Source: Bilabrum cf. latius
Lineage: Eukaryota
DNA: 64,000 nt
Reading direction: 5' to 3'
NCBI GenBank assembly: GCA_965178125.1
Contig: OZ237746.1
Location: forward strand, 1,054,001-1,118,000
The position numbers and the translations under genes were made by a program. Numbering within the stretch: the stretch's first letter is position 1; each line of letters begins with the position of its first letter. The notes below the pieces were generated by a model. It worked only from the letters and a program-made list of their open reading frames with translations, was not told the origin of the DNA and ran no database searches. This document shows, piece after piece, positions 1 through 64,000 of this stretch.

Positions 1-39
1 ACCTGCACCTGCACCTGCACCTGCACCTGCACCTGCACC
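1..39 (+). repeat. (ACCTGC)6 hexamer microsatellite encoding (Gly-Ala)n in the minus-strand gene
   Basis: Directly visible; reads GGT GCA in the frame of the minus-strand CDS. Confidence 0.85.
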
Positions 40-1830
40 GCCGCCAGCAGCGTCGTGCCCACCGTCCTTTTTGCCGCCGCCCGCCCACCGGCCGCGCGCA
101 GAGTGCGCCTCCCCGCCCAGGCCCGCCTCAGCCTGAGTCTTGGACTCGAGGGACCACCCGCCGCCGCGGATGCCGCCCGAGGCAGAGCTCGCGCTTGCGC
201 CCGGACCCCCACGCCCGGCCCGGCCCCTGCGCCTCACGGCAGCCCCCAGCCACGGCAGGGCGGCCCCCACCACCTGGAGGTCTCCCATGGCCTTGCCCAG
301 ATACGGCACGCCCCCGTGCACGAACGGGGGCCAGTGCCCGCCCCCTTCCTCCCCCGCAGCAGGCCCCGAGGCGCGCTCCCTCCGGACAGCGTCCTCCTCC
401 AGCTGCACCAGCGCGGAGGGCACCGCGCCCTGCCTAGCCGCCGCTGCCTCCCTCTGCGCGGCCCATCGGCTGCGGCTGGCCGCCCTCCAGCGCGCCACGG
501 CCCCCACCAGCTGCATGCCCGCCTCCCGCAGCCGGTGCACGAGGTCCCCCGACGACTCGCGCGCCTGCGCCCTGGCCGCCGCAACCGCCTGCCGCTGCTG
601 CCGAGTGCCCGTGGGCGCCGACTCGCGGGCCGCTTTCTCCGCAGCCGCCGCGTGCGCCCCCAGCCGCACGGCCCTCCTGAGCAGCTCCTCCCGCTGCACC
701 GCCGCGACCACGCAGTCCCTGTGCAGCGCGTCCAGCTGGTCCACCGTGACTCCAGGTTTCCCTTCCCGCGCCTGTGCTTCCTACCGCTCTCCCTGGGCGA
801 GCGACGGCCGGCTGTCGCGGCCCCACGGGACCTGTCCCACCCTCGCGGCGCTGGAGGAGGCTGCACCAGCAGCAGCAGCAGCAGGGGTGTTGGCTGGGGC
901 GGGCAGGCTGGGGAGCCGCCCCGACAGCCTGCCCGCTTCTCTGGCGGCTGCAGCCGGCAGCATGCCGCTGTCTTCAAACGCGGTGACGCTGGCGCTGGCA
1001 CCCAGGGCTGCACCCAATCTCTTGCCACCATCTACATCGCCGCCTGCCAGGGAGCGGGGGGGGCGTTGCGGCATCATCCGGCGAACACCGAGCGTCACGG
1101 AATGCCCCGCCACTCCAGCAACCGCCGCCTCCCTCGCCGCCCTCCTGACAGCCAGGGAATCGGCCGGACCCATCGACCCGCCGAGCCGGGAGCCCAGCGC
1201 CGCCCCCGCCCCCGCCCCCGCCCCCGCCCCCGCCCCCTCGTGCGCGTCCTGCGACCCTGCGGCCCGGCCCGCGTAGCCGCGGCTGGCACTGGCCATTGGG
1301 GCGTCTAGCAGGGCCATAAGCTCGCCGCCCGCCCGCGCCCGCGCCCGCGCCCCCTCTTCCCCCAATGCAGCAGCCGGCACGGCACGCCCTGCCTGGCCTG
1401 CCTGCCCGCCGCTGCGGCGCGCCTACCCGGATAGGGCGCTGCGACCCTCATCGGACAGGAAGGTGGCCGCTGCAGAGCCACGAGCCGCGCGTGGTTGCGC
1501 TCGGTTGAGCCATTTTCGGCGGGCGCTCAGCTGCTCGGCGCGCTCGGCTCGCTGCGACCGGCGCAGGCGCTTCTGAAATCCGTCGGTGCGGTTGATGGGG
1601 CAGTTGGGGTCGAGCGACGCATCATATTCGGGGATGCCTCCAGCACCAACTTGTTGACGATTGGTACCACCCGCAGACCCGCTTCGGGCCCCAGCTCCAG
1701 GATCGTAGCCAGGTCTCGGGCGAACGCTCTGGCTCATTGGCTCGTCGATGCGAGGGTGGCCACGGTCACGCGCTCTTCGACTTGTTGCGGCTCGGCTACC
1801 ACCCCCTTGATCATCATGCAAGCTACTCAT
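1..1830 (-). CDS. Hypothetical coiled-coil/low-complexity protein, 3' end outside the window; 2 in-frame TAG (1423-1425, 781-783)
   Basis: ORFs 1423..1971 and 781..1380 share a frame and are joined across a TAG. The frame stays open with no TAA/TGA from 780 to base 1 (helical segment ...DCVVAAVQREELLRRAVR... and PFVHGGVPYLGKAMGDL). Start is ATG 1830 (MSSLHDD) or 1929. Confidence 0.6.
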
Positions 1831-2971
1831 CGATCTTGCTTGCCTGCGCAAGGATTCAGACGGTGCTTTTGCTCCGCGACCACCATCGTCGCTCTCTTTG
1901 CCCCATGCCTGTGGCAGGCTAGGCAACATGTACCCCTCTCGTTCCGCTTTCCAGAGAGACAGGCAAGGCACTTGTACAATGCTAGCAATCGATAGAATAA
2001 AAACTGAATCGCAGTGATACTGCCTGCGTTTGTTGCGGTTGAAATCTCAACTGCAACGGAATTGGTGAGGCATCCTCGCACGCGATCGGAGTAGGCGAGC
2101 GTCGCACCACGAGGTGGGGAAGTTCGGATCGAGCCTGACACGGCACCCGAAACGTCATTCGAGCTGATGTGCGCCACGTGCTCGGATGAGTACGCACAGT
2201 CATCGCAGACGGGGGCGCGCACCCGCCGGCGCCTGCCGCCGGCGGTGCCTGCACGCCCATCCCGGATATCAATCATACCGGTGGCCCAGCCGGGCCCACA
2301 GCCGCTGCGGCCACCACTGGCAGGCGGATCGCGAGCATCACGCACAGCCCCTTGGCACCCCTTTAATCAACACGTGGGCTCCATGGTACCCCCTGGAGCA
2401 CCCAGAGATCGATCGCCTGCAGCGTTGTGGTCCACGGCCCCACCGCAATGGGCCACCCCTCCCGCCTGGCAGGGGTCGCTCGCGACCAGCAGAGCGGAGC
2501 GCCGAGCGCCGAATTCAAGCTTTGCGCAAGAGTGGCGGTAGCAGAAGCGCGTGTGATTTTGTCTTGCTTGTCGAAGAGATCCATGTTCCCACAGGTGGCA
2601 GGGGCCTCGTGTGGACGCCGCCTTGCGAGCGGTTGCAACCGCCGTTCGGCCTCGGTCGGCGAGATTCAAAGCTTCGACTGGCCACTGCTTGTGCACTTCG
2701 AGCCAACGATCCTGACTGACCTGCTCTGACGCATTGATTTGACTATAGTGTGAGAATTGCACGGTGCTGCACTATACATCGGCGCACGGTGTCCTCGAGC
2801 GACTCATGTGCGGCTCGAATCTCGCATCGGGTGGTTTTGCGTCTAGCTTAGGCCCCAAGCGCCCGGAATGCCGGCAATCGTTGCCACAAGTGCTCATTTT
2901 GCACGCCTTTCACTTTTGTTGTGATCCCGAGACCTTCGCAGACATCATCGGAACGAAACGATTCGATCGCA

Positions 2972-4609
2972 ATGGCGGCAGCCCAAGCGGCCGGCGGCGG
3001 GTCTCGCGCGATGTGCAAGGAGCCACCGGCGGATCCACCGGGGACAGAGCGCCCTGACGTGGCTAGTGCTGGATACGACCATCTGAAGGACGGAGACCGG
3101 TACAGGAAGGTATCGAAGCTGGGAGAGGGCACCTACGGCGTCGTGTACAAGGCTCTCGTGGTCGAGTCGGGCGAGCAGGTTGCGCTCAAAAAAGTGCGCA
3201 TGGACGCGTGGGACGAGGGCGTGCCTGCGACGGCCATGCGAGAGATCGCCGCTCTGAAGGAACTCAAGCACCCCAACATCGTGGAGTGAGTGAACGCCAC
3301 CCCACGCCGCCACCCACGCCCGCCGGCTCGTTTCCGTGTTCCCACTGCCTCATCCCCGCCCGCCATCAGCACCAACCCCCCCCCCCCCCGCCCCCCCCCA
3401 ACCCTGTCTCTCTCCCACCGCCGCAGCATGCAGGACGTCTTCGTGTCGTTCAGCGGCAACCTGTACCTCGTGTTCGAGCTGCTGGACCGTGACCTGAAGC
3501 AGCTCATGGACGTGGAGGCGGGCTCCCCCCTCAGCGAGGAGGCCATCAAGGCGTACGCCTGGCAGATGCTCAGGGGGGCCGCCGAGTGCCACTCGCACCG
3601 CATCGTGCACCGAGACCTCAAGCCGCAGAACGTGCTGCTGGCCAAGGACGGCTCCTGCAAGCTGGCCGACTTCGGGCTGGCCCGCACCTTTGGGCTCCCG
3701 CTGCGGGCCTACACGCACGAGGTGGTCACCCTCTGGTACAGGGCGCCCGAGATCTTGCTGGGCCAGAAGGTCTACTCGACCGCGGTGGACTCGTGGAGCA
3801 TCGGCTGCGTGCTGGCCGAGATGTGCAGGGGCAGGGCTCTCTTCCGGGGCGACAGCGAGATCGACCAGCTCTTCAGGATCTTCCAGGTGCTCGGCACGCC
3901 CGACACGGCCTCCTGGCCCGAAGTGGCACGCTTGCGCAACTACAACCCGGACTTTCCCCGGTGGCCCGCGCAGCCCGCCCGCCGGTTCTCGGGCCCCTTG
4001 GGCACCCAGGGGCAGCAGCTGCTCGCGGGTCTGCTGACGCTGGACCCCTCCAAGCGGCTGACCGCCACCGAGGCGCTCAAGCACCCCTTCTTCGACGGCA
4101 TGGACGACGAGCTGGCGCAGGCGGTGGCGGCCAGGGAGTACGCGGCCGTGGTGGGGCACCGGGGCCCGCCGCCCCCTGCGAGGTACGTGTCCCGGGCCAT
4201 GGCAGAGGCGGAGGACGCCAGCCTGGGGGTCGCGGGGGCGGGTGCGGGGGCGGAGGGCAAGGGGCTGGAGGACGCGCGCGTGCCGTGGGTGTCGGCCAAG
4301 GCCAAAGAAACGGCGGCGGCCGAGAAGAAGAGGCAGGAGCAGCAGCACGCCGCCAAGAAGGCCGGCGGCGCCGGGGCTGGGGCTGGGGCCAATGCGGGAG
4401 CGGGATCGGCATCGTCTGGTGGGGACGTGAGCGTGGGGCGCGTGGGGGCACCGACCAGGCCGCGGGACCCTCCGTCTGCGGGCCCGCGGGGCGGCCGGGC
4501 CGTGCACCGTCTTCACGTGGAGGCCCAGAACATCGTGCAGATGAGGGACAGGGAGGCGCAGGAGGCCAGCAAGAGGGGGCGCGGGGACGGGCAGGAAGGG
4601 GGCCGCTGA
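2972..4609 (+). CDS. Cyclin-dependent kinase, CDK1/2 (CDKA)-like; exons 2972-3285, 3427-4609
   Basis: Motifs [27 protein letters not shown] (PSTAIRE helix variant), [30 protein letters not shown] and [12 protein letters not shown]. Intron 3286-3426 (GTGAGT...CCGCAG) restores HPNIVDMQDVF. Stop TGA. Confidence 0.95.
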
Positions 4610-4968: not shown

Positions 4969-7047
4969 ATGAGCAGCAAGGCGCACAATTTCCTGAACCT
5001 AAAAGCATGGCACCCCAATAATGCCAGAAACCGGCGAAAGATTGCCGAAGCTGAGCAGGCGGTGAGCGCCCTTGCGTTGCAGAAGCTGCCGCTCGCACTT
5101 GCACCGTTCGTATGTCATTTTCGAAACGCGCGTTTACCCGCATCAACGCATTTCACCTCACCGCAGCATGCACAAAAGGTCAAGTCGGAGATCGATGCGA
5201 AGGCGCGACTGGAAGCCCAGTACGAAGCGATCAAGCAGCGCAGGTTGCTTGCCGAGGCGACCGGCGAGCAGGACCAGCTTGCAGGCACGGATGAAGGCAC
5301 GGCATGGATGTACGCAGGGCATGGGGTCGGGGATGGCGGCTAGGACGAAGCGGGGCAGGACCAGCAGACGCAGACCGAGGAGCAAGCTTTCCTAGCGAGG
5401 TTCCAGTCCGCCGTGGAGGGCGGAGACCGCGGGCTCGGCGGCGGCGGGGACCGGAAGCCCGCCCCAGTAGCGGACGGACGGGCCGCGTAGATGGCGATGC
5501 AATTCGGCGATGGCACCCTCGGTGATGAGAAGGCCGGGCTGCCGCGCCTGCCGGAGTCCTTCCGTCCCCGGCCGCGCGTTCCCAGGCAGGACGAGGACGA
5601 GGGCAAGCAGCCGAGCGAAGGGGGCGCGGGGAGGGCATCGGACGGATCAGGGGGCGCGGGTGCGGGCCCGTCCAGTGGCGAGGGTGCGAGCGAGGGCGAG
5701 GTTGACGATGGTGAGGAGGGCAGAGGGAAGGGCAAGAAGTAGTAGGTGAAGAAGAAGAAGAAGAAGAAGGAGAAGAAGAAGAAGGAGATGGGCCAGGCTG
5801 AGCTGGCCGTGCTGCGGGAAGACCCGCTGGCAGAGGAGCTAGGGCTCATGCCGGACTCGGACTCGGGCTCAGACTCGGATTCGGATTCGGATGCAGATTC
5901 CGAGGAGGAGGGGGAGGGATCGGTGTCTGGCAGGGGGGGCGTTGGTGGGGGAGAGGTAGAGGGACAGGAGGGAGCCGACTCGGGGTTCGGGTTCGGGCAC
6001 GGTCGGACCCGGGTCGGCGGTGGCGGCCGTGGGGAGGGGCAGAGTTAGTCTTTGGACATGCGGAAGGTGCTCAGAGACGCGAAGAGGCGAGCCAAGGGCA
6101 AGGGCAAGGGCAAGGATAAACAGGAAGGGGACAGTGGGGGTGATGGAGGTCAGGGCTAGGGCGGGGGGCATGTGGACGGAGGTGCGGGCAGGGGTGCGGC
6201 TGTGGGCCTGCCGTCATCTGCACCAGCGCCACCGCAAGGACCAGAAAACTTTGCAAGCTCAAGCTCAAGCTCCAGCTCCAGCTCGGCCTCTCGTGCAGGC
6301 GCTGGCAGCTCGCGCAGCATGCTGGGCTTGTCTGGGTCTGCAGCCCAAGCCTTGCTCAAGGCCGCGGGGGGCGGGCAGGTGATGGCCACACTGCTGGAAG
6401 CTGCTCCGCGGTCGGTCACAGATACTCCAGGTCTGGATGCGACAGCATCCGCTGGGCGAGCCCCACAGGGCGGGTTGGGGCACGGCAAGCCCGATGATGC
6501 CAAGGTCGATGATGGCGAGGAGGGCGAGAGGGAGAGGGATGTGGCCGCGGCTCTTCGCGTGCTGCGGGGAGTGGAGGGAGGCAGGGCCCGCCGGCAGATG
6601 ATCGAATCTCTGCCTCGGACGGTGGCTGAGGGGGTTGCTGCTCGTCTGTTGCTGCAGCAGCAAGGCTCGGGGGCGGAGCAAGGGCACGGCATGGGGGCTC
6701 GCGAGTGCCGGTTGCTACGGGAGGCCCAGGACAGGTCCATCCGGGGTGGCAGCAGAGCGAAGGGGAAGAGGAGCAGGGGGGAAGACAGCCGCGAGCGCAG
6801 GAGAGGAGACAGCCGCGAGCGCAGGAGAGGAGACGGCCGCGAGCGCAGGAGGGGAGACAGCCGCGAGCGCAGGAGAGGAGACAGCCGCGAGCGCAGGAGG
6901 GGAGACAGCCGCGAGCGCAGGACCAGTCACCACCGCGGTGGCCACCGCTCTAGGCACCATCGGCCCTCCTCCGATTCGGCCGGACATAAAAGAAGCAGAC
7001 GAGACGATAGGGATGAGGGGAAGGACAGAAAACGGCACCGCGGCTAA
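4969..7047 (+). CDS. CIR1/Cwc25-type (Cir_N domain) protein with charged low-complexity tail; intron 5062-5166; 6 in-frame TAG (5341, 5488, 5740, 5743, 6046, 6157)
   Basis: The N-terminus FLNLKAWHPNNARNRRKIAEAEQ and a later WMY motif are typical of Cir_N proteins. ORFs 4864.., 5491.., 5746.. and 6172.. are one frame separated only by TAG. Ends in TAA at 7045-7047. Confidence 0.8.
6784..6921 (+). repeat. 24-bp coding tandem repeat, ~5.75 copies, encoding DSRERRRG
   Basis: Unit GACAGCCGCGAGCGCAGGAGRGGA repeated head to tail with no spacers. Confidence 0.9.
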
Positions 7048-7290: not shown

Positions 7291-8436
7291 TCAGATCCAC
7301 CCCGGGGCTTTCGGAAACAACCGGATCGTGGCGTATGCCACGGAGAATAGGCCTGCGGCGGCAAACACCGCACCCATGGACCGGCAGAGACTCCAGCAGC
7401 CTTTGGACACGTGCGCGTCCGCCCTGGCCGCGGCCGCCTCGGCCCCGTGTGCGCCCTACTCGGCCCCTTCCCGCAGATGGTCGAGTGTGCCCAAGTCCTC
7501 TCGAATAGAACCCCCCACGACCTGTGCCTGCTCTCGCAGCGCCCCCACCGCCCCCGCGATCGATTCGAGGATCCCGTCGGCGCCCCGCTGCCCGCTCCCT
7601 TCGCCCCCCCCACCCCTGCCGCCGGCGCCTCTCGCGATGTTTCCAGCCGCAGACCACGGATTGGATCTTCTCGATCCGGGATCGGTCGGCTGGCCCAGCA
7701 GCTGGGCCCGAGCGGAGCGCAGCCGCCCCGCGGTGGTCTGCTCGCGAGCCCCTGGCAGCGGCCCCACCCCCCGCTCGGGGGACGAGCCAGCGGCTGCTGC
7801 CGGGCCTGCGGTTCCACTTGGGCTGCGTGGCTGCGGTGGCACGTGAACCTGCGCATGCCCCCGGGTGTGGCCGGGCTCGACGCCGCCGCTGCCGCCGTGC
7901 CTCTCGCTCGAATTGCCGCGGGGGATCGGCTGGGAGGCCACTGCGGCTCTCACAGCCCTGGAGCGATTCCTGAGCCAGAGCGCTACCCTGCGCCACCTGG
8001 ATTCCAGCGACGCAATCGACGAGACGGCGTTCACACCTTCTCGTTTGTGAGCGCCTCGAGGCGGCGGCGTGGCCTGCGCCGCAGCAGCGCCTGGCGGCCC
8101 ACCCGCGCTAGGCCATGAAAGGCGGAGCGCAGGCTCGTTCGCGTCTGACCACCGCTTGTTCAAGCGTAGGATTAGCCCAAACTGCTGCGCATGAGCTCGC
8201 GCGAGCCGAAGCAGCATGTCGCGGCACGCTTTCGACAGAGCGGCCAAATGCACGATACGCACGTCCTCTTTGCTTGCAGCCGGGTGAAGCAGTGCAATCA
8301 TACCGCTGATCGAAGTACCGTCTTTCTAAAGGGCCGTTCGGCGTTCTTCATCTGCTCTGGCGCACGCACTGAGCATGCGCTCGGAGGCCTCGATGGAGCG
8401 TCTAAGCTGCGCTCCGAGGGCCACGGCCCGCGCCAT
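7291..8436 (-). CDS. USE1: USE1-like ER Qc-SNARE (tail-anchored); 2 in-frame TAG (8326-8328, 7456-7458)
   Basis: Starts MARAVALGAQLRRSIEASERML...L*KDGTSISGMIALL and has a C-terminal heptad region. After the TAG at 7456 comes ...KGCWSLCRSMGAVFAAAGLFSVAYATIRLFPKAPGWI-TGA, a single C-terminal TM helix ending IRxFPK as in USE1. Internal introns cannot be excluded. Confidence 0.6.
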
Positions 8437-8737: not shown

Positions 8738-11700
8738 TCAGGTGCCCCTCCGTCCCTTCTTCTTCCGCCGGCGACCCCTGCCCGCCGGGGCCTGTCCGGC
8801 CGACCCTGCACCGCGTTCCAAGGAAGGGGCCTCGCCCGTGGTCCCGCCGCTCCCAGCAGCACTTGCTCCATGGCCTCCCTGCAGGATGGTCTGTGTCATG
8901 GCAAGCACCTCCTCGATCTGCTCCGCGCTCAGAGAGGCAAGCCCCTCCGGCAGGCCAGCGCCAGCACCATCATGCGATGCACCCGCACCCGCACCCGAAG
9001 CCGGCCCGCCGCCGCTTTCACCCCCCTGCTGCTGCTGCTGCTGCTGCTGCGCGCCGGCAGCCGCCCCGCGCACCATTCGCTGCAGCAGGTCACGCGCCCC
9101 CTGCGACTGCAGGAACTGCTCCGCCAGTCGCCTCTGCTGCTGCTGCTGCTGCCCAGGGTCCGCCTGGGCCTGGGCCTGGGCCCGGGCGCGGGCCTGCTGC
9201 TGCTGCGTCCTCGCCGGCCCGTGACCCGCTCGCCCCCCCATGCCAGCGCCCATCCCCGCCCCGGCGGCCGCCTTGTGCCCCTTCTGCTTCTCCTTCTCCT
9301 TCTCCTCCTCGGCCAGGGCCTGCCTTTGCTGGAGGAATCGGCTCACGGCCACTCCCCGGGACCGGTGCAGCCTGGCCTGCAGCGCGGCCCGCCGCACCAC
9401 CGGGTCCTCCGCGTCCCCCACCACCGCCTGCAGCAGCCGCGCCGCCTGCTCCTGCGCATCGGCCGCCGTCTTGAACTGCCCTACCGTCGCCCGTGCCCGC
9501 GCCAGCAGCTCCAGCGCGGGCACGGCGGCGTACACGTCGGCCTCGGGAGAACGCGCCTTGAGCGCCGCCTCGGCCGCCTGCTGCGCCCAGGCCGCGTGCC
9601 CGCACCGCAGCGCGTCCTCGGCAGACCGCAGCAGCATCTCAGGCACGGAGGGGTTGGACGAGTCCCCCGCCGCCAGCCGGGTCAGCAGCAGCGCCCGCTG
9701 CCAGCAATGCGCCGCGCCCTGCACGTCTCCGCACCGCGCTAGCGAGCGAGCCAGCTCCCCGTAGGCCGCCGCGGTGTCGGGGCTCTCCAGCCCGCACACG
9801 CGCTCCGCCGCCACCACCGCCCGCTGCGCCGCCACGGCCGCCTGCGTTAGCTCCCCCAGCCCCGCCAGCGCCCGGTGCGCCACCCTGAGGGCCTCCACGA
9901 AGTCAGGGTGGCTCCCGTCGCACACGGCCAGCCCGTGCTGGGTCGCGTCGTAGGCCATCTGCAGCGCCTCCTCGGCGCGCCCCTGCGCCAGGGCGTCCTT
10001 GGAGCCGTCCAGCAGCGCGCGGGAGGTGCCCGGCGACGCGTCCTGCGCCGAGGTCCGGATGACGGGCACGAGGGCGGCCACGTCGGCGGCCCCGAGCGGC
10101 GCTGGGGTCGCGCCCAGAGCCACGGGGCGGGCCCGGAGGCGGATGCCGGCCAGCTGGCACACCCTCCGCAGAAGGGACACCCGCGCCGGCTCTTCCGCGG
10201 CAAGCGATCCACCCCCTGCGGCCCAGCGGCCCTTGAGCTCGTAGCCCTCGAACGACGAACGCACACGCTCCCGCACCCCGGCCCACACCCCGGCCGGAGT
10301 GAGTGCCCCCGAGGCGGAGGACCGCAGCAGCAGCAGCTCCCTGACGCAGCGAGCCCCCGAGGGCCAGGCCGTGCACGCCGCGCCCCCATTGGTGGGCGAG
10401 GCATCCTCGGTGCTGCCCCCCTTCGCCTTGCCCTCGCGTCCCTTGCCGGCCTCTTCATCGCCGGGCAGGCAGTCGCCCGCGGGCCCGTGCTCCACGCCCG
10501 CCAGCTCCAGGCCGCCCTCGGGATCCAGCAGGTCAGAGACTGCAGCGGCGGCCGCCAGGCGCTCCTAGTCCTCCTCTCTTTCCGCACCACCGCCCTTGCC
10601 CTTGCCCTTGCCCTTGCCTTTGCCCTTGCCCTTGCCCTTGGGTGGGGGGCGGGCTAGAGAGGGCCGGCCGATCGCCTCGGCCACGGCCGGCGGCAGATCC
10701 ACTCCGCAAGCCGAGGCCACTCCGGCCGACACAGCCACCCATCCCACCGGGTCCGGGTGCCACGTGTCCCCGTCCTCCGCCGCTTTGGCTTCGCTGCCTC
10801 TCTGCCCCTTTGCCCCGACCAGGCAGTTGAGGAAGGCAGCCACCGCCGGGGTCGGGCACTCCCGCAGGGCCGGGCGGCCGTCCAGCAGCCTCGATAGCAT
10901 GCCCGCCGCGCTCCGAGCCACCATCTCCCCCTCTAGCAGATCCAGGGCCCACCGGTGTCCGGCCTGCATGCGAGCGGGGGCGGGCGAAGGCTCAGACTGA
11001 GACTGAGACTCGGGCGGCCCCTCCTCCCCACCTAGCCGTAGCATGGCACGAGCCACGCCTCCCATCCGGTGAGCGGGCACGCCCATTGCATCCAAGGCCC
11101 TCGTCAGCGAGGAGCCGTCCACGCTCGCCGTGGAGCTGGCCAGCAGGGCCCGGGCCAGGCGTGGCACCAGCGAGTCCCTCACGTACTACCCGCAGCCGAG
11201 GGGACGCTCCTCCTCCTCCTCCTCCTCGCCGCCGCTCTCGTGCTCCACGCCCTTATCCTTCGTTTCCTGCTTGTGTTTGTCTGGCAGCAGACAGACGGCG
11301 ACCCTTCGCAGCGCAGCGGCGCTCGCTTCCACCCGCCCCACGACCCCGTCCTCGCCGCAGAGGGCCTGCGCCTCTTCGGCGGGCAGCGGCCCCTGCTTGC
11401 TCCCATCACCGCCACCGACCTGCTCCTGCTCCTTCTCCTGCTCCTTCTCCTGCTCCTTCTCGCCCCCTTCACCCTGGTCGCCTCCCGCGCTCCTGGCACG
11501 CACTGCCACCGGCACCGCAGGGTCAAAGGCCTCGAGCCCCAGCAGCACCCGCAGCTCCCTGTCGCCCCCCACGCCGTACTTGTCCAGCACGTCCTGCCCC
11601 AGGCCAGCCAGCGCGTCCGCCATCATGGAACCGTCCGGCGCCCGGGGGACCCCATCCTGGCCCTGCACCACCGTGCCCTGCAAGAGATCTTGCTGCAGGG

Positions 11701-18445: not shown

Positions 18446-18484
<39 letters not shown>

Positions 18485-35441: not shown

Positions 35442-35472
<31 letters not shown>

Positions 35473-38580: not shown

Positions 38581-38613
<33 letters not shown>

Positions 38614-50211: not shown

Positions 50212-50808
50212 CTTGGGTTCGCGGTGGAACGGAAGCATGCTCCGTTGGTGCCTGTTGCGCAGGGTAAGGCCCGGGTTCAGACCCAGGCACACAGCAACTC
50301 TAGTGCTGTGGCATGCGTGTGGTGTAGGCCCTCCCCCCCCCCCGCTACGTGATGGTGCGCCAGTGGTGGTGCAGTTGCGGAGGCTCGATGTGGGTGCACT
50401 GCACGGCCCGGAGCCTCACTGCGGCTTTCTAGATGCATGGTCTTCCCGCCAACATAGAAACATGTGTGCCAGTTGAAATTGTCTGCATTTATTCTCACAC
50501 CATGCAGCAAACGAGAAAGTAAGCTGAATCGAAGGCAGTGCCGCCGAGTTTCAGGTAGTGATGAAGTCTGCAAGATAGACACTGCAGCAACAACAAGCAG
50601 TGCATGATTCCCTCGGGCATTCTGGGCGTTGTGGATGCTTGAGTGGTCTACTTGAGACGGGAGCAAAGCTGCATTCCCTCTACATGTTGCCGTGCCGATC
50701 GGGGCGCACGGGCTCACACGCGGTAGTCAGGGCAATTGCCCGGAGCCCATCCCGCACAGAGGCGTTCTCATACCGCGATGATGATGCCCCGGAGGACCAG
50801 TTTTGTCC

Positions 50809-53289: not shown

Positions 53290-53411
53290 GTTGCCGGGGC
53301 CGGGATTCGAATGGTGTGGGAGTCGCCTTCGTGGACTTGGCCTGTCCGGTGATGTGAAGGCTCCGGGTGCGACTCGGACTAGTAGGTTCTCTACTGCTGG
53401 GCCGCAAAGTG

Positions 53412-54506: not shown

Positions 54507-54639
54507 TGATCCTGACGGGGACAGGCGCCAACGTCCCTTTGCGCAGTTGCCACAGTGCGGTGCGACCAGCTCTCCGGGGTTGCTGCCAACGACAGCAGTT
54601 AGGGAGGAAGGGCAGCACAGATCGCCCGATCTTGGCGGT

Positions 54640-57297
54640 ATGGCAAGCATACTCGACAAATCCGTCGGAGGGGCCGCGCTGCTGCTCCTTTCGACGGTAG
54701 GGCAGCGCATCCTCACCTTTGTTTTGAATGCGTTGATCACGAGGGCCGCTGGGGCCAAAGTTCTAGGATTTGCATCGAATGACATGGAGCTACTTCTTGC
54801 TACGATTTTGTTTATTACTCGGGAGCCTTTTCGGCTGAGTGGGCTGCGGTGTTCGCCTTCGAACCGACGCAGGGCGCAAAGTCTTGTGAACCAATCTTGG
54901 GCGCCCGTACTTGTTGGAACAGTCGCAGTCAAGGTTGCAATTCTAGTCATATTGTTCGGATTTTCGTCGCCTTCCTCTGAGCTGGGGCCGGACTCGGAGG
55001 CGAGCATGACCGAAGCAAGCGCCTCCAGCCAGCGATCCGCGACCGCGCTCATGTTTGTCCTCGGTGCTTGGCTCGAGCTGCTTGCCGAGCCCATGTACAT
55101 CCTCACGTAGTCCGAATTAATGTACGAGCTGCGCGTGCGGGCCGAGGGGCTTGGCGTGCTGCTGAAGAGCGGCCTGGCCTACGCGCTCGTCGTGCACGGT
55201 GGCCTGGGTCCGACCGCCTTTGGGGTGGCGCAGCTGGGCTACGGGGCGGCGGTGCTGGGCGTCTTCCTGTGGCACTTTGCCAGTGGGCGGGCCCGGGGCC
55301 TGCAGAGCATGCAGATGCTTCGATCCAGCCCTGGGGCGCCGGCCGGCACGTTCCTCGGGGTGCCGCTGCCCGCCCCGCTGGAAGGCGGCGAGCAGGTGTA
55401 GGTGCAGGAGGAGGAGGAGCAGAACAGATAGGAGAAGGATGAAGGTGACAGCGAGGTGGAGACGGATGGACAGCGACATGAGGTTGGCAAGGACAATGGG
55501 GCCGCCCCTGGCTGGGTGCTGGCTCTGTCCCCCCTGTGGGCCCCCTGGGTGGACCGTAGGGACGCGGGGCTCATCGGGGCGCTGTCGCTGGAGGGGTTGG
55601 CCAAGCACTTCATCACGCAGGGGGACAGGATCGTGCTGCTGGCCTCGGCGGACGAGGAGACGAGGGGCCTCTGGGCGGTGGTCTCGAGCTACGGGAGCCT
55701 TGCCCCCCGGCTGCTGTTCCAGTCCATCGAGGAAGCAGCCAGGGGGCTCTTCGGGAGGATCGCGGCGGAAACGGAGGGAACAGAGAGAGGGATGAAGCAA
55801 GAGATAGAGCAAGAGAATGGGGAGGATGCGGGGAGTGGAGAGGGCGGCGCGGCAGACTAGGAAGGTTAGGAACAAGAGAAGGGCAAGGAGGCCGCCGAGG
55901 GATTGACAAGGGCCGCCGAGGTAAGCACTACCGCCAGCGCCAATGCTAATGTCAATGCCAGGACAAACAGCAACACTCGCTCGAGCCGCATGGCGGGTGC
56001 GCTGGAGATCGTGATGTGGACCGTGTCTCTGGTGGGGCTGCTCTTCGTGGCCCTGGGCAGCAGCTACACCGAGCTGGCCACCAATGTAGTCCTGGGGCCG
56101 CGGTTCCCCCACAGCGGGACGATGCTGTCGTACTACTGCCTGTACGTGCTCTTCATGGCCATCAACGGGGCGCTGGAGAGCTTCGTGCACGCCGTGGCCT
56201 CGCACGAGTACATCGCGAGCCTGGCGTGGCAGCTGGCTCTGTCCTCTGCACTCTTCGCGGGTGCCTCCACGCTGGCGCTGCGAGCCGGCGGGGGCATCGT
56301 GGGCGTGGTGCTGGCGAACTGCTTCGCCACTGCGGTGAGGATCGGCTTCGCGCTGTGGTTTGTGGCGGGGTGGTTCGGGCGGAGTGCCAGTGCCAGTGCC
56401 AGTGCCAGTGCCAGTGGAAGGGAGGAGGGGCAGGGAGACAGGGGCGGGGTAGATGAGGCGGGTAGAAGCCGCGATAGTGGTGAGGAGGATGGGAGTGGCG
56501 GACATAAGAACAAGGCTGCTGCACGAAGCGATGGTGCGGGGACTGGCGAGGACGTGGGCGATGCAGGCAGCGCGAGTAGAAAGGACGGTGAGGATGGCAC
56601 CGGGTCGAGGCAGAGGCAGAGGTCGGGATCGAGGTCAGGGGGGGATACGCGAGGTACAGCCCCGGCTCAGGACAAGGACAAGGACAAGGACAAGGACAAG
56701 GACGAGGGCAGGACCCCGCCACGGTCGCTTTCAATGGGCCGCTTGCTGCCCTCCTTTCCCACCCTGCTCGCGATCGTCGCTGCGTTCTGCACCACGCACG
56801 CGTCCTGGGTCTGGTTCAGGGAGCCGGATCCGTGGGCGCTGGGCCCCGACGGTGGGGTCGGTGGCAGCGCCGAAGCTGCTGCTGCTGCTGCTGCTGCTGC
56901 TGCGCTGCACACCCCCTTCGGCGCGTGGGCCAGTCCCGCGCGCCCTGTTCTAGCTCGCATGGCGGCCAGCGGCATCCGGGGGCTCCCCGAGCCGCCACCG
57001 GGGTGCGGGTGCTGCCAAGAGAGCGGGTGTATTGTTCCCTGGAAGTAGACGGAGATAGGGGCAGATTTGTCTGAGGGCCGGCGGGAGGGCGAGAGCGGTG
57101 GATAGGGCGGCGAGCATCAGTGGGGGCAGCCCCTGCACACCGCCCGGGGGTCCTGGTGGGGCTGCAGGCTGCGGCACCTGGCAGTGGGAGCGGGCGCGTT
57201 CGGCCTAGTGGCGATGTCGCTGCTGCTGAACGACAGGCAGAGGGTGCTGGACTCGGCGAGGGCGCTGCGAGAGGGCAGGCAGGCTGCCAGGGGGTGA
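54640..57297 (+). CDS. RFT1: RFT1 (Man5GlcNAc2-PP-dolichol translocation protein, MOP superfamily), ~885 aa; 7 in-frame TAG (55108, 55399, 55429, 55858, 55867, 57046, 57103)
   Basis: RILTFVLNALITR, TILFITREPFR, LELLAEPMYILT*SELMYELRVRAE, KHFITQGDR, YGSLAPRLLFQSIEE, LSYYCLYVLFMAINGALESFVHA and GVVLANC. The final TM RLRHLAVGAGAFGLV follows the last two TAGs. Stop TGA at 57295. Confidence 0.92.
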
Positions 57298-57576
57298 GTG
57301 AGTGAGCGAGGGGATGGATGCAGACGAGACGAGACGAATGGAGAGGAAGAGAGCCGGGCTGGGCCCCATGGTGTCTCTGGAGGCAACGAGAGGTCATGCG
57401 AGCCGATGCGATGTGGTGGACAGACCGCGTGTGGGCAGACTGCGAGAGAGGTGACAGACACGTGTGAGAGCAATCCAATCCAATCCAAGGCTGTGCAAAG
57501 CTCGCCTCAGGGAGGGGGGGAGTCGCCCGCCGCCCCCAGCCGACGGAGCCAAGCCCACACCGGGAACCGAGTCGGG

Positions 57577-60186
57577 TCACGAGCCGCCGCCGGGCTTGAA
57601 AGGGGACGCATCCGCCCTCAGCTGGAAGCTGCCAGGCCCGGATCCGGTCCCCATCTGCTGCTATGGTCGAGGCTGGAAAGGGGGCGCCTGTGCAGCGGAG
57701 GGAGGGGGCCTCCACGCCGCGGGGGCAGGTGCACCCGCTCCCATGGGCGCGCCTCCTGTGGGTATCCCTGTCCCTGTCCCTATGCCGGCGGTACTGCTGC
57801 TGCCAAACCCGGCAGAGCCCCCTCCCATGGGGGGAGCCATCTGCATGGCCGTGCTTGCGCCCACATTGAAACCAACGCTTGCCCCTCCCATACCCATGCC
57901 TGATCCCATGCCCATGCCACCACCCATTCCCATGCCCATGCCACCACCCATACCCATGCCTGATCCCATGCCCATGCCCCCCATGCCACCCATCCCCATG
58001 CCACCAGCCATCCCCATGCCCATGCCACCCATCCCCATGCCCATACCACCTCCCGCAGCCCCACCCGCTGCCGCCCCCAGCGACACGCCACGCCCCGCCC
58101 CACGCACGCCGATGTCCATCCCGGACCCAGCCCCCGACCCCGCCTACGAGCCCCCGATCTGGAACCCGCCCGCGCCCGCCGCGCGCAGCACCTGCCGATC
58201 CGCCGCCCCGACCCCCACGCCAGCCCCCTCGCCTACCGCACCCGCACCTGCACCCAAGCCAGCCATTGCGCCCATCCCCACGCCCGCCCCCGCCCTGGCC
58301 CACGCCGCCGTGTCCAGCCCAGTGGGCCCCTTCCCCGCCGCGGCCCGCCCCCGCAGCACCCCGAACGACTCCTCCAGCGACTCGCGCACCGTGGCGTAGT
58401 CCGCCGTCAGCATCGACTGCCCGTCCCTGCTGGGCAGCGCCACCGCCTGCCCGTCCCCCAGGTCCAGTCGAGTGAGCGCCTCCACAGCGTGCCCCACGTC
58501 CAGGGCGGGCGCGCCCCCGCTGTCCTGCTGGTGGAAGACGAAATCCCGGAAGAGGGACAGCAGGTGCTTCTCCCCCGCCCTGGACCAGGAGGGGTCTGCC
58601 TGCTGCTCGGGCCGGTCCATCACGAAGCCCATCTTGAGCAGCACCCGCAGCAGCCGCCCGCTCCCGTGTTCCCCCGCCAGCAGTGCCCTCAGCGCGTCCG
58701 CCTCCCGCAGCGCCTCCCCCGCCCTGTCGCTGACCTTGTCCTGCAGCGCCCCCACCACGCTCGAGGCCTCGTAGGCCCCGTTCAGCACGTCCTCCAGAAA
58801 GGTCGCCAGGTCCCGCCGCCCCGTGGACTGCAGCTGCTTGATGGCCGCCGCCTCGGCCCCCACCAGCGTGGACACGGACCCCAGGGACAGCTGCAGCAGC
58901 ACCCTCGCCACCGCCCGCACGTCGCCCGCCTGCCGCTCCGCCAGGGGAACCGACGAGGCGCGGTCGGCCTCGAGCACGTCCATCACCCCGGAGCCGGAGA
59001 GCCGCACGCGGTCCCCCGCCGTGAAGAGCACCTGGGTCGGGGGCACGGCCCCGAAGGCCAGGCCCCTGGCGTGCGCCGCCCGCAGACCGAGGAACAGGTC
59101 CACGGCCCACCGCCACAGCGCGCCCTCGGAGGGGAGGCCGTCCGGGCCGACGGAACCGGCCGTGGGCGCGGCGCCACCCATGGCCGCGTCCGCCGCCGCG
59201 GTGGACGTGCGCTGCGCCACCTGCGCCGGGGTTCCGCTGGCGGCGCCCCGCATCTGCCAGGAGCGGATCCTCTCCGCGGCGGACTCCGCGCACGGGTGGT
59301 AGTCGTGGGCCAGGAAGAGCGCGCCCGCCGTGACGAATGCGGTGCGGAGGCTCACCACGCAGGGGTGCTCCAGCACGGCCCAGGCCCTGGAGGCATCCGC
59401 GGCCCTGGCCTGCGCCACCTTGGCCCCGTCCACGCGGCGGATGGCCAGGACGGCGCCGTCGCTGCGGCGGACGGCCTTGTAGACCCTCGAGACGTAGCCC
59501 GTGCTGCCCGTGGTGAGGTCGCCGTCGGAGAGGTCCAAGGGCAGCACGTGCGTGAACTGAGAGGGCACCGCGTTGCACTCGGGGTCGCTGGCGGGCAGCC
59601 GCCGGGCCAGCGCCGCCTGCTCGGCGTGCAGCTGCGTGGCGACCGTCACGGGGAGCACCGCCGGGCGGAAGGCGAAGCGACGGGGGCCGCGAGCCACCAC
59701 GGGCTGGGAAAGCGCGCGAGACAGCGGGTCAGACGGGCCGGACCTTCGCCTGCCGTCGGTGCCGCCTGGGCCGTCCGCTGTGCCTTCCAGATCCACGCCG
59801 CCCTGCAGCACCGCTCGCAGGCGCGCGGCCGCAGCGTCGTAACGCGGTGCCGCCGGAGCGCCCTGCGTTGCATAGGCTTGATTCTGCGCACTAGAACCAG
59901 CGGCACCGATTCCCATCCCAAACTGCGCGGTGGGCTGCTGCTTCGGTTGAAACGGAGCTGCGTTCGTCGAAAGCCCGAACGTTGGCCGGCTGTCGTCGCT
60001 CGTGGCAGCGCCGGCTGGCTTTTCTTTCTAGGGAGATGGTGTAAACAACCGCACGCCGTTTTCTAGGAACTCGGCGCGGGACATGGCCCTGTGTTCGGCC
60101 GGAGTCTTCGCTCCTGGTGTGGTAGCCGCTCGCAACGCGACGAATGGCGAATGCTGGGATTTCTGAGCACCTGGTGCCCCGGCCAT
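57577..60186 (-). CDS. PAN3: PAN3 (PAN2-PAN3 deadenylase regulatory subunit), ~869 aa; 3 in-frame TAG (60028, 58144, 57661)
   Basis: PAM2 motif LSTNAAPFQP, pseudokinase SRVYKAVRRSDG...HDYHPCAES...LRAAHARGLA, and C-terminal knob GRLLRVLLKMGFVMDRPE...WSRAGEKHLLSLFRDFVFHQ...LTRLDLG...SRDGQSML. Stop TGA at 57577. Confidence 0.92.
57885..58045 (-). repeat. Imperfect coding repeat of GGCATG/GGTATG units encoding Gly-Met (GMGMGG) repeats in the PAN3 C-terminal tail
   Basis: Plus strand shows repeated CCCATGCC/CCCATACC units. Confidence 0.8.
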
Positions 60187-61045
60187 GCTTGGTTAAATTA
60201 TTTTAAGGAGCTGAATTTGAGTGGCTGGGCCAGCCGGGCCCAAATCTGAACGCTGGGGCAAGCAGTGTTCAGCCAAGTAAGTCCCCCCAAACCGCACGGT
60301 ACTCCGGTGCTCTGGCACTCGATCCGACGGTGGGCTGCCATCGGGGCGATAAGCAGGTCATGAGCTCCCTGTTGGGGCCTCTCGCATGCTTGGATACCAA
60401 GCCAGCACGCGGCACCGCCTGCAAAAATACCAGGTCCACCCCAGCTCGCACCGGCACCGCCACCAACAGCACCTGCCCGCCGTGTTCACGCCGCTCCTGC
60501 CGTGGGGCCGCGGCCCGGCGCAGGCGACGAGACGGGAGCGAGCCTGCCAGTGGTACCAGCCCACCTCTGGGGTGGTGGCCGACCTGCGACCAATTCAGCA
60601 CCACGCTAGGCTCGGAGGCCCCTAGGCACCACCCCATGCATGCTGCTCTGTGTGCGTCGGACAGCTGCTTACACGATGCCGGGCCTGGCAGCCCGTCTTC
60701 AAGTCTGCTTCCAGACAGCTTGCCAGCAGGCAAACGATGCGATTGATCCTGGCGCCCTACCCAATCAAGGCCTCTATCTGGCCATGGATCATCTCACTCT
60801 TGTCGGGTCTTCCCCCCCCCCACCTCAACTGCAGCTCAAATACGGCGGCGGGGCACGGCGGGGCACAGCACGTTCATTCACTGCGTTATTTCTTTGCTGT
60901 TCTTGCAGCCGGAGCAGCGGGTGTGCCACCGGCGCCATGGGCGGTGTGCACCGCCGGCAGTGCGAGATGGAGGCGGAGGCGGAGCTGAACCTGCTTCGCG
61001 ACAACAGCCGCTTCTCCTCCGGCCACCGCCAGCATGGTGTGCCTA

Positions 61046-61537
61046 TCAATGACGGAATACCAGAAACTGGGTCGGACCCAGCCCAAAGAAAACAAGAGAC
61101 GCATGCTCGTGAGACACAAATGCCCCAAAGCTGCGTCCGACGCAGCAGTGCCAACCCGCCTGGCCCTCGACGTCGTCTCCTTCTCCCCCACCAGCACTTG
61201 TTGTTGAAGCTTCTGCTCTCGGCGATGCTTTGCTAGCGGCGCCCTCGGCTGCAGCGGCCGCAGCAGCAGCTGCTGCAACTGCGGCAGCCCGTGATGTAGC
61301 CTGCGCGACCCTCTCCGCTTGCTCAAACTGCGACGACAACTCACCCTTGGCAGCTGCATCTAGCATAGATCGTGCAGCCCCGACTGCTGCTGCTAAAACA
61401 CGATCCGGTGCATCACATGCGAAAACTTTCAGTGGCAGCTTGGTCGCTCCGTCCTGGGACTTGCTTTCTTCCGGATCCATCGGTCCGCGATCCGCTCCAG
61501 CATCTAAGATGTCACTTGAATGCTTAGATGCAGCCAT
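61046..61537 (-). CDS. Dynein light chain type 1 (LC8 family) with Ala-rich insertion
   Basis: C-terminal GWHCCVGRSFGAFVSHEHASLVFFGLGPTQFLVFRH matches the LC8 pattern WHCIVGxxFGSYVTHE. Stop TGA. Confidence 0.8.
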   Translation of the reverse strand: MAASKHSSDILDAGADRGPMDPEESKSQDGATKLPLKVFACDAPDRVLAAAVGAARSMLDAAAKGELSSQFEQAERVAQATSRAAAVAAAAAAAAAAEGAASKASPRAEASTTSAGGGEGDDVEGQAGWHCCVGRSFGAFVSHEHASLVFFGLGPTQFLVFRH

Positions 61538-62087
61538 TTCGGGCGACGAACAAGGTCGGTGACGCTGCCAGTCGCTTTGTTCGACCAGATTTCGTCCGTC
61601 AGGTCCGTTGGCCGAAACCGCACGCAACCGCCCGGCCGGCCTAAGCGGGAGCGAGTGGCGGAGCCGCCGCACAACGATGCAGGCACGAAGTTTGCATGTT
61701 CTGTTCCACACTCGAATTACAGTGGTCTGGGGCCAGTGCTGGTCTCGCCCTGCATCTCGATCGCATTCACGCTTGGCCTCGCAAGCTTGCTGGCCCTTGC
61801 AGCAGGGCCAGTGGTGCCGTTCCAGCGCCGCTGCTGCTGAAGCCGCAGCTCCGCATCTGGTAGCCACCGGCCTCCCTCCCTCCTAGTTACAGATTCCTGG
61901 AAGGGCCCTCGTTTCCCAAGCTCCTCCGCACATCCACTCGCCTTTTTTTGCAAGCGGAGCCTGGCTGTACGGGTCCACGAAACCAGATTGCAGCAGTAAC
62001 GAGTGCTTTCGTCTCCGAGCGGTTGATCCGAGATTTGCACGCCCAGACTGCGAAGCCTTGGGCTACCCCTGGCAATACTCCATAGTT

Positions 62088-64000
62088 ATGGAGGCCTACA
62101 CTACCATCAAAGTGCTGGGCCGTGGAAGCTTTGGCTAGGCGGTGCTAGTGGAACGCAAGGATGACAGGGTGAGCGTGCTCAAATCTCGAGTCGAGCCTTG
62201 AACCGCCTTACGCTGCATCATACCGGTTGCATCAGCACACAAGCAGTATCATTTGTGCGGTCAGCTTTGCTCATGAGCTACGCACCGGTCATTCGCCAGG
62301 TTTTATCCCGTTTGGGCCGCCACACGCAGTCGAGGCATGTGATCAAGCAGATTAACGTGACCAGGATGACACCCAAGGAGAAAAGCGAGGTGCGAAACGA
62401 AGTCTCAGTATTGAGCCGATTACGAGTGAGAGACAGGTTGCGCGAAGTATCCTTGCTGGTGCCTGATTGGCGCGTGCTTTCCCGTCGAGCTTCGAAGAAG
62501 CCCCACTGTTCGCATTGCTTGGGCCGCCGTGTGCTGCTTCCGCTGTCGCAGTGCCCCAATATTGTCGGTTATGTGGATAGCTTCATGCACCGCGGGTCGT
62601 TGTGCATCGTGATGGAGTACGCGGACGGCGGCGACCTCGAGAAGATCATCAAGTCCCGCCGCGGCCGCCTCATCTCAGAGTCCAAGATCCTGGACTGGTT
62701 CATCCAGCTGTGCCTCGCGCTCAAGTACGTCCACAACCGTAAGGTGCTGCACCGCGACCTAAAGCCGGCGAACATTATGATGACGAGCAAGGGCATGGTC
62801 AAGCTGGGCGACTTTGGCATCGCCAAGATGCTCGACAGCACCGCCGCGCTGGCCGCCACCGCCACGGGGACCCCTTACTACGTGAGATAAGAGTTGGTTG
62901 TGTGTTTGAACCATTTATTTGGATTGGATGTGGGGGGGGGTTGAGATGGATACAAGAAGGCGATGCAGTGTTTCTGCTCCTGCCCGCGGCCCCTGATGAT
63001 CCGTCTCGCTCGTCCCCCTCTCTCCTCTCCTCTCCTCGCGCGCAGCTGTCCCCGGAGATATGCCGAGAAGCCAAGTACAACAACAAGTCCGACATTTGGT
63101 CCATTGGCTGCATCCTGTACGAGATGTGCACGCTCAAGCACCCCTTCGAGGCCCGCAACATGAAGGGTCTCGTGAGGGCCATCCTGAGAGGGAGGTACGC
63201 GCCCATCGCCTCGGGTTATTCCAAGGGCCTCTCCGAGATCATCGCCTCCTGCCTCAGCCAGGACCCCAGGAGGAGGCCCAGGGTGGACCGCATCCTGCAG
63301 CACCCCCTCCTGCTCAAGCGGATGGAGGCCTACGTGGCGCGGCACGAGGGGGTCAAGGACGAGCTATCCCACACTGCGCTGCACGGGGTGCACTTCAAGC
63401 AGCTGCCCGTGTTTGCCCCGGGGAGGGAGGCACGGAAAGCCATGGAGCGGGCCGCGGCGGAGAAGAAGGACGGGGGCAGGGGGGCGTAGCGCAGCGGGAG
63501 CGGGAGTAGGGCGGGGACAGGGGCGGGCCCTTCCTCCCTGGCTCGGGCACCCGCGGCCGCCCCTGCCCCTGCCCCCGCGCGGGGGCACGGGCACGGCCGA
63601 AGGGCACCCTCGGGCCCGCGAGCGGGGGCTGGGGCAGGGGCCGGGCCAGGGTACGCGCACGCGCGTGCACCATCGAGGGCCGGCGCCGCGGGGGCAGCCG
63701 CCCAGGTGCCGCCTCGCTCCCGGGCTGACCGGGACAGAGACAGGGGCAGGGGCAGGGCGGGGACAGGGGCAGGGGCAGGGGCCGGCGGCTATGCTCGCGC
63801 GCGACCGGGCCCTGGGTCTCGGCCGTCCTCCCGCGGCAGCAGGGGCTCTGCCAGGAGCGGCTCGCGGGACTCGAGGGCGGCGCACGACCGGCTGCGGGAG
63901 CGGGCGCTGGCGCAGGCCGCACGTCTGCGTGAGGCCAACAGGGCGGCGGACGCGAAGGTGAGGGCCGCGGAGGAGGCCAGGAGAGCCGCCGCGGCGAGGC
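62088..64000 (+). CDS. NIMA-related kinase (NEK1/3/5-like), 3' end outside the window; exons 62088-62168, 62330-62425, 62552-62881, 63046->64000; 2 in-frame TAG (62136, 63487)
   Basis: MEAYTTIKVLGRGSFG*AVLV, VIKQI, CIVMEYADGGDL, ILDWFIQLCLALKYVH, LHRDLKPANI, VKLGDFGIAKML, GTPYY|LSPEIC and YNNKSDIWSIGCILYEMCTLKHPF. The frame stays open from 63487 to the window end. Confidence 0.93.

Follow-up and report, generated by a model that had tools for sequence, protein, structure and literature searches.

In-frame UAG in a GC-rich, 64-kb window of nuclear DNA: very probably a sense codon, and probably glutamine

The question raised by this locus is whether UAG still ends translation in the genome to which it belongs and, if it does not, which amino acid is inserted in its place. 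The window, by which we mean the whole 64-kb stretch that was analysed (contig OZ237746.1, positions 1,054,001 to 1,118,000, forward strand), has a GC content of 63–75%, or ~69% overall by base counts, and holds ordinary eukaryotic nuclear genes on both strands. It is GC-rich nuclear DNA of a flagellated microbe. An earlier interpretation of the letters by themselves (the sequence-only reading) had claimed that UAG is a sense codon in this DNA, and the claim is borne out by stop counts inside spans anchored by protein domains, by the same pattern in a second species and by purifying selection after every TAG. It is highly probable that UAG is read as a sense codon. The fuller statement, that UAG specifies glutamine while UGA (the main one) and UAA serve as terminators in the pattern of NCBI table 15, is given a probability of about 0.68.

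The Pfam scan was run on translations in which TAG was written as X. The models that carry in-frame TAG codons are given below, with positions counted from the first letter of the window.

54640–57297, plus strand: RFT1 (oligosaccharide flippase), single exon, 885 codons, stop TGA; Pfam Rft-1, 6.2e-74; seven TAGs, at 55108, 55399, 55429, 55858, 55867, 57046 and 57103.
37393–50211, plus strand: PI3K-like, one 12.8-kb frame of 4272 codons, stop TGA; Pfam PI3K_C2 (weak), PH, PI3Ka and PI3_PI4_kinase, all in the one frame; ten TAGs, at 38539, 38575, 39532, 41518, 41995, 42556, 43714, 44794, 47797 and 49261.
8738–16039, minus strand: CLU (clustered mitochondria), 2433 codons, stop TGA; Pfam CLU_N and eIF3_p135; seven TAGs, at 15989, 15863, 15803, 14336, 11939, 11186 and 10565.
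4969–7047, plus strand: CIR-like, 692 codons, stop TAA; in Pfam a weak SR-25 match only; six TAGs, at 5341, 5488, 5740, 5743, 6046 and 6157, those at 5740 and 5743 being a tandem TAG TAG.
57577–60186, minus strand: PAN3, 869 codons, stop TGA; Pfam Pan3_PK, 4.3e-33; TAG at 60028, 58144 and 57661.
30676–32445, minus strand: radial spoke protein 3 (RSP3), 589 codons, stop TGA; Pfam Radial_spoke_3, 6.8e-32; TAG at 31270 and 30739.
24413–25900, minus strand: U1-70K, at least two exons, stop TAA; RRM_1 match and U1-70K features; TAG in the last exon (25331) and in the N-terminal exon (25873).
16538–18925, plus strand: last exon of ADA2 (transcriptional adapter), stop TGA; Pfam TADA2A-like_3rd, 7.7e-28; TAG at 18758.
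62100–64000, plus strand: NEK-type kinase of several exons, leaving the window; Pkinase matches on two exons; TAG at 62136 (glycine-loop exon) and 63487.
7291–8436, minus strand: tail-anchored "USE1-like" frame, identity unconfirmed, stop TGA; TAG at 8326 and 7456; coding score about zero.
1–1929, minus strand: hypothetical frame, leaving the window; TAG at 1423 and 781; coding score weakly positive.
20915–23884, plus strand: hypothetical gene, stop TGA; TAG at 23513, with two more (21068 and 21080) lying upstream of the first ATG (21341); coding score positive.

The USE1-like frame, the 1–1929 frame and the 20915–23884 gene gave no match in the Pfam scan, and the CIR-like gene bears a name that we presume from its N-terminus and not from a family match. 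CLU, PI3K-like, RFT1 and PAN3 are each one long exon.

The sequence-only reading had counted 48 in-frame TAG codons, and this total was reproduced, 42 of them in 11 models by script and six by inspection. The script found ten in PI3K-like, seven each in CLU and RFT1, six in CIR-like, three in PAN3, two each in RSP3, the USE1-like frame and the hypothetical frame 1–1929, and one each in the U1-70K last exon, the ADA2 exon and the hypothetical gene (21341–23884). Those added by inspection are at 25873, at 62136 and 63487, at 21068 and 21080, with one possible site in an upstream eIF3L exon; the first and the last TAG bound the interval 781–63489. Some sites are less certain, namely CLU amino acids 17 and 59, the pair at 21068 and 21080, the eIF3L site and those in models without a Pfam match (USE1-like and the hypotheticals). 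The first two CLU TAGs lie in N-terminal segments with a negative coding score, and the coding score of CIR-like is positive across all six of its inter-TAG segments.

Fifteen gene or exon models, comprising 14,947 codons, contain 38 TAGs and zero other internal stops. Since only TAG was read through when the frames were opened, this lack of TGA and TAA is in part built in, and the stops were therefore counted inside spans which have a Pfam match at both ends in the same frame (residues 1067–4222 of PI3K, 80–1754 of CLU, 7–382 of RFT1, 477–610 of PAN3 and 135–347 of RSP3). These spans, 5,554 codons in all, hold 13 TAG, 0 TGA and 0 TAA, so the earlier claim that no TAA or TGA interrupts the genes is upheld where it can be counted without circularity. 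From the first to the last domain of PI3K-like there are seven TAGs and neither of the other stops, and three TAGs lie between the two domains of CLU. The models' five other frames contain 206 TAG, 567 TGA and 50 TAA, a TAG share of 0.25, and from these off-frame shares the chance that 13 of 13 stops would be TAG if the stretches were non-coding is 1.5e-8.

Under the standard code the TAGs would have to lie in in-frame introns, be edited from U to C, belong to pseudogenes or be assembly errors. The genome does have introns (in CDK, NEK, U1-70K and eIF3L), which are canonical GT-AG introns of roughly 100–170 bases, long open frames do arise by chance at 69% GC, and most of the TAGs are within low-complexity inserts. 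Against this stands the anchored count, in which every stop is TAG though TGA is 2.8 times commoner off-frame, and we know of no precedent for nuclear editing at 48 or more sites. The letters themselves are also repeated elsewhere: contigs of four runs from three studies match 50501–63999 with zero differing letters. The two best-matching runs may be the window's own source and hence not independent, but run X5, from a separate study, covers 54612–56412, 57071–57903 and 58305–60236, again with zero differing letters, and spans eight TAG sites. Since the contigs of this independent-study run are identical to the window, the TAGs are real DNA and not assembly errors. A comparison of the run contigs with GT-AG introns gave no match among the joints listed (15 of 39), and the runs look like DNA; among all the runs listed for the window, none is on record as RNA.

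Two observations were made on the side in these runs. One contig of run X6, which comes from another study and has another organism label, is two bases short in PAN3 at 59232, which would shift the frame; this may reflect strain variation or misassembly of a repeat. The depth bins 56351–56800, 50951–51400 and 63551–63999 stand 10- to 100-fold over their neighbours in all four runs and have many loose ends; they are short simple coding repeats (for example DK and GA/GE runs) which draw contigs from genome-wide.

A second species was found through RFT1. A metagenome scan with a narrow RFT1 alignment retrieved a metagenome contig (L001) of 2,544 bases and 56% GC, which is entirely coding; its product is an RFT1 orthologue with 55% identity across 775 aligned positions. 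The RFT1 frame of L001 stays open from end to end. It has five TAGs (274, 1207, 1270, 1639 and 2140) and no TAA, its one TGA falls exactly at the homologous C-terminus, and it is collinear with the window gene up to that point; the other five frames each hold 3–7 TAA and 6–17 TGA. Because the two species have their TAGs at different positions, the pattern belongs to the decoding system rather than to individual sites. In the conserved blocks, 448 codons were compared, of which 355 encode the same residue, 204 of these 355 with a different codon. The dN is 0.13–0.21 in every inter-TAG segment, including the segment past the last TAG of both genes, and dS is 1.5–2.8 or saturated and not computable. 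Because purifying selection is seen in all segments, the last one included, translation continues through TAG in both species. The standard code is at odds with this low dN/dS after every TAG, with the recurrence of the same pattern at other TAG positions in L001, and with TAG 55108, which lies in a gap-free conserved block opposite CAA of L001. With all its parts taken together, we regard the standard code as extremely improbable for these genes.

Further relatives are known as predicted proteins. In the RFT1 tree the protein P0009 is sister to the window and L001 pair (100/100), and it is predicted as 544 residues without a stop and with the same C-terminus. The database relatives of RFT1 are fragments, two of which begin at a Met four residues past TAG codon 157, and such starts are what a standard-code gene caller would give. 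Likewise the CLU relatives P0027, P0190/P0034 and P0187/P0023 are consecutive fragments (193, 174 and 276 residues) on one 13,376-base ENA contig, the end of the first and the start of the second falling on adjacent positions of the window CLU, and they have the appearance of a single gene which a gene caller using the standard code has split at in-frame stops. A protein search with eIF3L gave as its sole result one fragment, 88% identical (97% over the aligned columns). There was no match in a metagenome scan with RFT1 as a single-protein query, in genome-contig scans with the eIF3L and RFT1 alignments, or in one viral-contig scan.

A sense meaning inside genes could be combined with a stop at some gene ends, or the TAGs could be passed by leaky readthrough with a near-cognate tRNA-Gln. 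Codes with a dual meaning are described in some ciliates and in Blastocrithidia, as far as the excerpts drawn on here extend, and costly decoding could explain why TAG is rare and why six compact genes with 3,097 codons have none. The gene ends speak otherwise. The terminators of the 15 models are TGA in 13, TAA in two and TAG in none, and the sequence-only reading had likewise seen no complete gene end in TAG; L001 ends in TGA, and the USE1-like, RPL23a and LC8 frames have a TGA terminator too. With ten TAGs in a gene, partial readthrough would leave almost no full-length product, yet purifying selection persists past the last TAG, and the genes with 7–10 TAGs are conserved through their ends. 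All four bases follow the TAGs, again as had been noted, with no fixed readthrough context. A dual or leaky UAG is accordingly regarded as improbable. The context-dependent codes of Condylostoma and the karyorelicts were likewise rejected on the gene ends (0 of 15 in TAG, a small sample).

UAA does not share the change. If TAA were sense, the NNA:NNG ratios of Gln, Glu and Lys would give 4.3–7.3 in-frame TAA codons in the window and 3.5–5 in L001; none is seen in either (P 0.014–0.0007 and 0.03–0.007, respectively), and the frames past the two TAA stops have a non-coding score. TAA is not a sense codon. A code of table 6 type, with UAA and UAG both glutamine as in ciliates, Ulvophyceae, oxymonads and Amoeboaphelidium, was rejected since TAA is found 0 times in 14,947 window codons and 0 times in ~840 codons of L001, where CAA:CAG is 10:10. 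Three features of table 15 are found here: in-frame UAG with a continuing frame, UAG never as a terminator, and UAA and UGA still as stops. The proposal of a table 15 type with UAA as the stop stood in so far as only UAG is reassigned, but the main terminator is TGA (13/15), with UAA at 2/15. According to an argument in PMC5304391, which like the other papers cited here is drawn on in part, a change of UAG only points to a tRNA whose anticodon is CUA.

The amino acid was sought first at the sites which homologues can inform. RFT1 codon 157 (TAG 55108–55110) is the only TAG of the window in a well-conserved column, and it lies inside a conserved transmembrane block. Among 17 homologues with a residue at this column, 11 have Q, three L, two T and one A, and E or K is found in none (an earlier alignment gave Q in 10 of 16). 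At this site L001 has CAA, in a gap-free block where nearly all neighbouring residues are identical, and reciprocally the L001 TAG at 274 is opposite CAG of the window. Of the alignable TAG pairs between the two species, CAR is thus present at two of three. The flanks agree, as TAGs adjoin Gln runs, TAG being flanked by QQ in 3 of 42 cases (7.1%), Q codons in 45 of 670 (6.7%) and E codons in 6 of 1,033 (0.6%), with 1.1% for K. Given that UAG is sense, these sequence comparisons make glutamine the probable meaning.

Several results weigh against glutamine or limit the ground on which it stands. A naive-Bayes classifier was built on the residues at −2, −1, +1 and +2, and it recovered the true residue in 89–99% of trials with 42 random sites. 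At the TAG sites it put Glu first, with Gly, Lys, Asp and Gln 6.5–6.9 log units behind (Gln 6.9). The observed Glu-minus-Gln score of +6.9 is 1.5 sd (standard deviations) below the true-Glu samples (mean +17.1, sd 6.6) and exceeds all 300 random true-Gln samples (mean −18.3), which means that the TAG sites are no random draw from Gln sites. E or D, and K, stand at TAG 55858 and 55867 in close relatives. The L001 TAG at 1639 is opposite CGA (Arg) of the window. An exhaustive search with CLU residues 1600–2300 was dominated by TPR proteins; the true CLU orthologues have S, G, T, I, K, S and K at the first TAG column and F, G, G and S at the second, and both columns are unconserved and uninformative. 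The TAG sites other than codon 157 are in unconserved columns, and what carries the amino-acid call is one well-conserved column plus two reciprocal matches between orthologues. The evidence base is one window and one 2.5-kb relative, and a scan of the window returned no tRNA gene (ARAGORN) and no Rfam family match; the gene for eRF1 lies outside the window.

The neighbour context and the two RFT1 sites are the points in favour of UAG as Glu, or as Lys, decoded by a tRNA-Glu or tRNA-Lys derivative with CUA, and UAG = Glu has precedents in the portions of PMC10553269 and PMC12153298 that were consulted. This meaning is nevertheless unlikely, although it keeps a real chance. Neither residue occurs at the codon 157 column where Q is found 11 times; the orthologue has CAA in a near-identical block and the reciprocal TAG of L001 meets CAG; and the double-Q flanking of TAG fits Q and neither E nor K. 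The context may instead reflect the ancestral codon (GAG or AAG changed to TAG) at unconstrained sites. The rarity and uneven use of TAG suggest that point mutation at weakly constrained sites produced many of the TAGs recently, out of CAG but out of GAG and AAG as well. We read TAG as a young, rare Gln codon and the context as a record of ancestry and not of meaning because many TAGs would come from GAG or AAG where constraint is lacking. Glutamine as the most likely residue, as had been proposed, thus stood on the codon 157 column and the reciprocal CAA and CAG matches, while the neighbour context favours Glu. A tally of residues at TAG columns, the check which the sequence-only reading had put forward, gave Q as the majority at the single conserved RFT1 column, the others being unconserved. 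The TAG positions in the NEK glycine loop and in the U1-70K N-terminus, which we take to be variable among homologues, were not used. Codes with UAR as Glu (peritrich ciliates, Blastocrithidia) were rejected with E at 0/17 in the conserved column and TAA not sense, and UAG as Leu is a poor fit, with L in 3 of 17 at codon 157, 18.8 log units behind on context and a poor agreement with the double-Q flanks.

If UAG is glutamine, TAG makes up ~6% of the Gln codons of the window, and its use is uneven. Six compact genes with 3,097 codons between them have no TAG. They encode ATP sulfurylase, eIF3L, an epimerase, CDK, an enoyl-CoA hydratase and a leucine-rich repeat (LRR) protein, and two of the six serve as TAG-free controls.

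34804–37149, plus strand: ATP sulfurylase/APS kinase fusion, 0 TAG in 781 codons, stop TGA; Pfam PUA_2, ATP-sulfurylase and APS_kinase.
27099–28775, plus strand: eIF3L last exon, 0 TAG in 558 codons, stop TGA; Pfam Paf67.

The remaining models have 38 TAGs in 11,850 codons, a rate at which ~10 would be expected in the compact genes, and the chance of none is ~5e-5. The TAGs are concentrated in long proteins rich in low-complexity sequence. Such a pattern would be expected of a rare codon kept out of genes which are constrained or strongly expressed.

The mechanism that we propose for UAG as glutamine follows the one given in the consulted part of PMC5304391. A dedicated tRNA with the anticodon CUA would pair with UAG and not with UAA, glutaminyl-tRNA synthetase would charge this tRNA, and the recognition of UAG by eRF1 would be lost or weakened.

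Known systems with this code are few. The 2024 survey PMC11687900, in the part drawn on, lists UAG only as Gln for Iotanema spirale, Protocruzia tuzeti and two phyllopharyngean ciliate lineages, and this short list agrees with the earlier remark that UAG as Gln with UAA as stop is rare in nuclear genomes. Iotanema spirale (Fornicata) is like the window in being a non-ciliate in which only UAG has passed to Gln and UAA is not sense (excerpts of PMC5304391 and PMC11687900), and a tRNA-Gln(CUA) with an altered eRF1 is predicted for it (PMC5304391, in part) as for the present organism; in Iotanema the eRF1 change is at the threonine of the GTS motif (same paper). The two differ in their stops, UAA being dominant in Iotanema according to the same excerpt and TGA in the window (13/15). 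Compared by description, a window with 69% GC that encodes a mitochondrial enoyl-CoA hydratase and CLU would not suggest an anaerobic fornicate.

The two phyllopharyngean lineages and Protocruzia tuzeti use the same code table, and in the consulted text of PMC11687900 their UAG aligns with conserved Gln, Q making up 58–70% at conserved columns in the ciliate cases, and is never a terminator. In contrast to ciliates, the window is a GC-rich stretch of 64 kb with long genes, GT-AG introns of 100–170 bases and TGA stops. Ciliate macronuclear DNA is unlike such a long-gene, intron-bearing, GC-rich window, and the organism does not look ciliate-like.

The aphelid Amoeboaphelidium protococcarum, a parasite of algae, is also a non-ciliate with a stop-to-Gln change, but there UAA and UAG have both changed (PMC6299283 and PMC5304391, in part), and Amoeboaphelidium genomes have 40% GC (Table 1 of PMC10608142, itself seen as an extract) against 69% in the window. 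An aphelid identity was rejected on the GC difference and because TAA is not sense here. In the rhizarian exLh (UAG = Leu) and in Scotinosphaera (UAG = Ser), UAG alone is reassigned and UAA is a stop, as here, but the amino acid differs (PMC11687900, same part).

With regard to the lineage, the relatives at 45–98% identity come as proteins of metagenomes and of run assemblies, P0022 of a 97%-identical sister strain among them. Of the named organisms, Cafeteria roenbergensis, a bicosoecid stramenopile, has the nearest RFT1 found, which belongs to the cluster of P0011 and, as the third-best full-length match, is 38% identical across 93% of the query region. Cafeteria has T at the codon 157 column, and to our knowledge no code change has been described in it, nor did one turn up in the literature searches. 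The RFT1 tree puts the window into a starred set of 13 rows, together with Cafeteria and a brown alga and apart from the fungi, and the window clade is on a long separate stem (1.12). This tree cannot place the organism because its named rows are fungi and two stramenopiles only. The best named CLU match is from Phaeothamnion (others are a foraminifer and plants), and the nearest Atlas cluster of eIF3L has Bacillariophyta as its commonest phylum. RFT1, CLU and eIF3L are together three weak hints of a stramenopile affinity. The nearest Atlas clusters of the ATP sulfurylase/APS kinase fusion are one mostly basidiomycete and several bacterial.

Two observations touch on labels. At 90% identity a protein labelled as RFT1 of Symbiodinium sp. 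KB8 (P0194) clusters with the RFT1 of Cafeteria roenbergensis, which suggests Cafeteria contamination in the Symbiodinium sp. KB8 assembly. Some of the runs that hold small parts of the window are labelled as algae or protist metagenomes, which should not be taken as evidence of habitat.

No report of a GC-rich non-ciliate with UAG only as Gln was found in the literature searched, which did not extend to subscription journals and supplements. The chances seem evenly balanced that this is the first UAG-only change from stop to Gln in a GC-rich, non-ciliate lineage known from environmental or culture-associated sequence, possibly a heterotrophic stramenopile, with at least 2–3 species at 56–69% GC and TGA as the main stop. 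Nuclear codes in which UAG and UAA differ in meaning are very rare. If the reading holds, the capture of UAG under strong GC pressure would misfit the usual picture in which AT pressure removes UAG first, and a non-ciliate at 69% GC which terminates mostly at UGA and has its code in common with a relative of 56% GC would be a test of ideas on stop-codon capture. It would also be the first genome-level case outside the ciliates for a direct reading of the tRNA(CUA) and eRF1 changes. Standard-code gene callers would fragment the genes of the clade, and annotations, orthologue sets and completeness scores would stay wrong as long as table 15 is not applied. The unevenness of TAG usage, with none in compact housekeeping genes and frequent occurrence in disordered regions, may offer a view of a young sense codon while it spreads.

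Some features of the gene models are of interest in their own right. The tandem TAG TAG of the CIR-like gene (5740–5745, plus strand) is within a lysine-rich stretch, and the frame runs 433 codons further; after the pair the coding score is positive in the first three of four segments and about zero (0.02) over the last 295 codons. In PI3K-like the PH domain stands between the C2-like and the PIK and kinase domains, there are very long low-complexity inserts (GQ, GR, GA and S runs), and both the size and the architecture are out of the ordinary for a PI3K. The introns at 3285–3428 and 62885–63045 (plus strand) start with GTGAG and finish with CAG, which is preceded by a C-rich or CT-rich tract, and one of the two has a GC content well under the exon level.

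Other Pfam matches in the window are a CDK-type kinase besides the NEK-type one, an enoyl-CoA hydratase and an NAD-dependent epimerase, and, among the small proteins, ribosomal protein L23a and the dynein light chain LC8. The ATP sulfurylase/APS kinase fusion (34102–37149) has the domain order PUA_2, ATP sulfurylase (ATPS) and APS kinase (APSK), followed by a C-terminal extension of ~280 residues without a Pfam match, and a glycine-rich nucleotide-binding loop can be read from the translation of its APSK domain.

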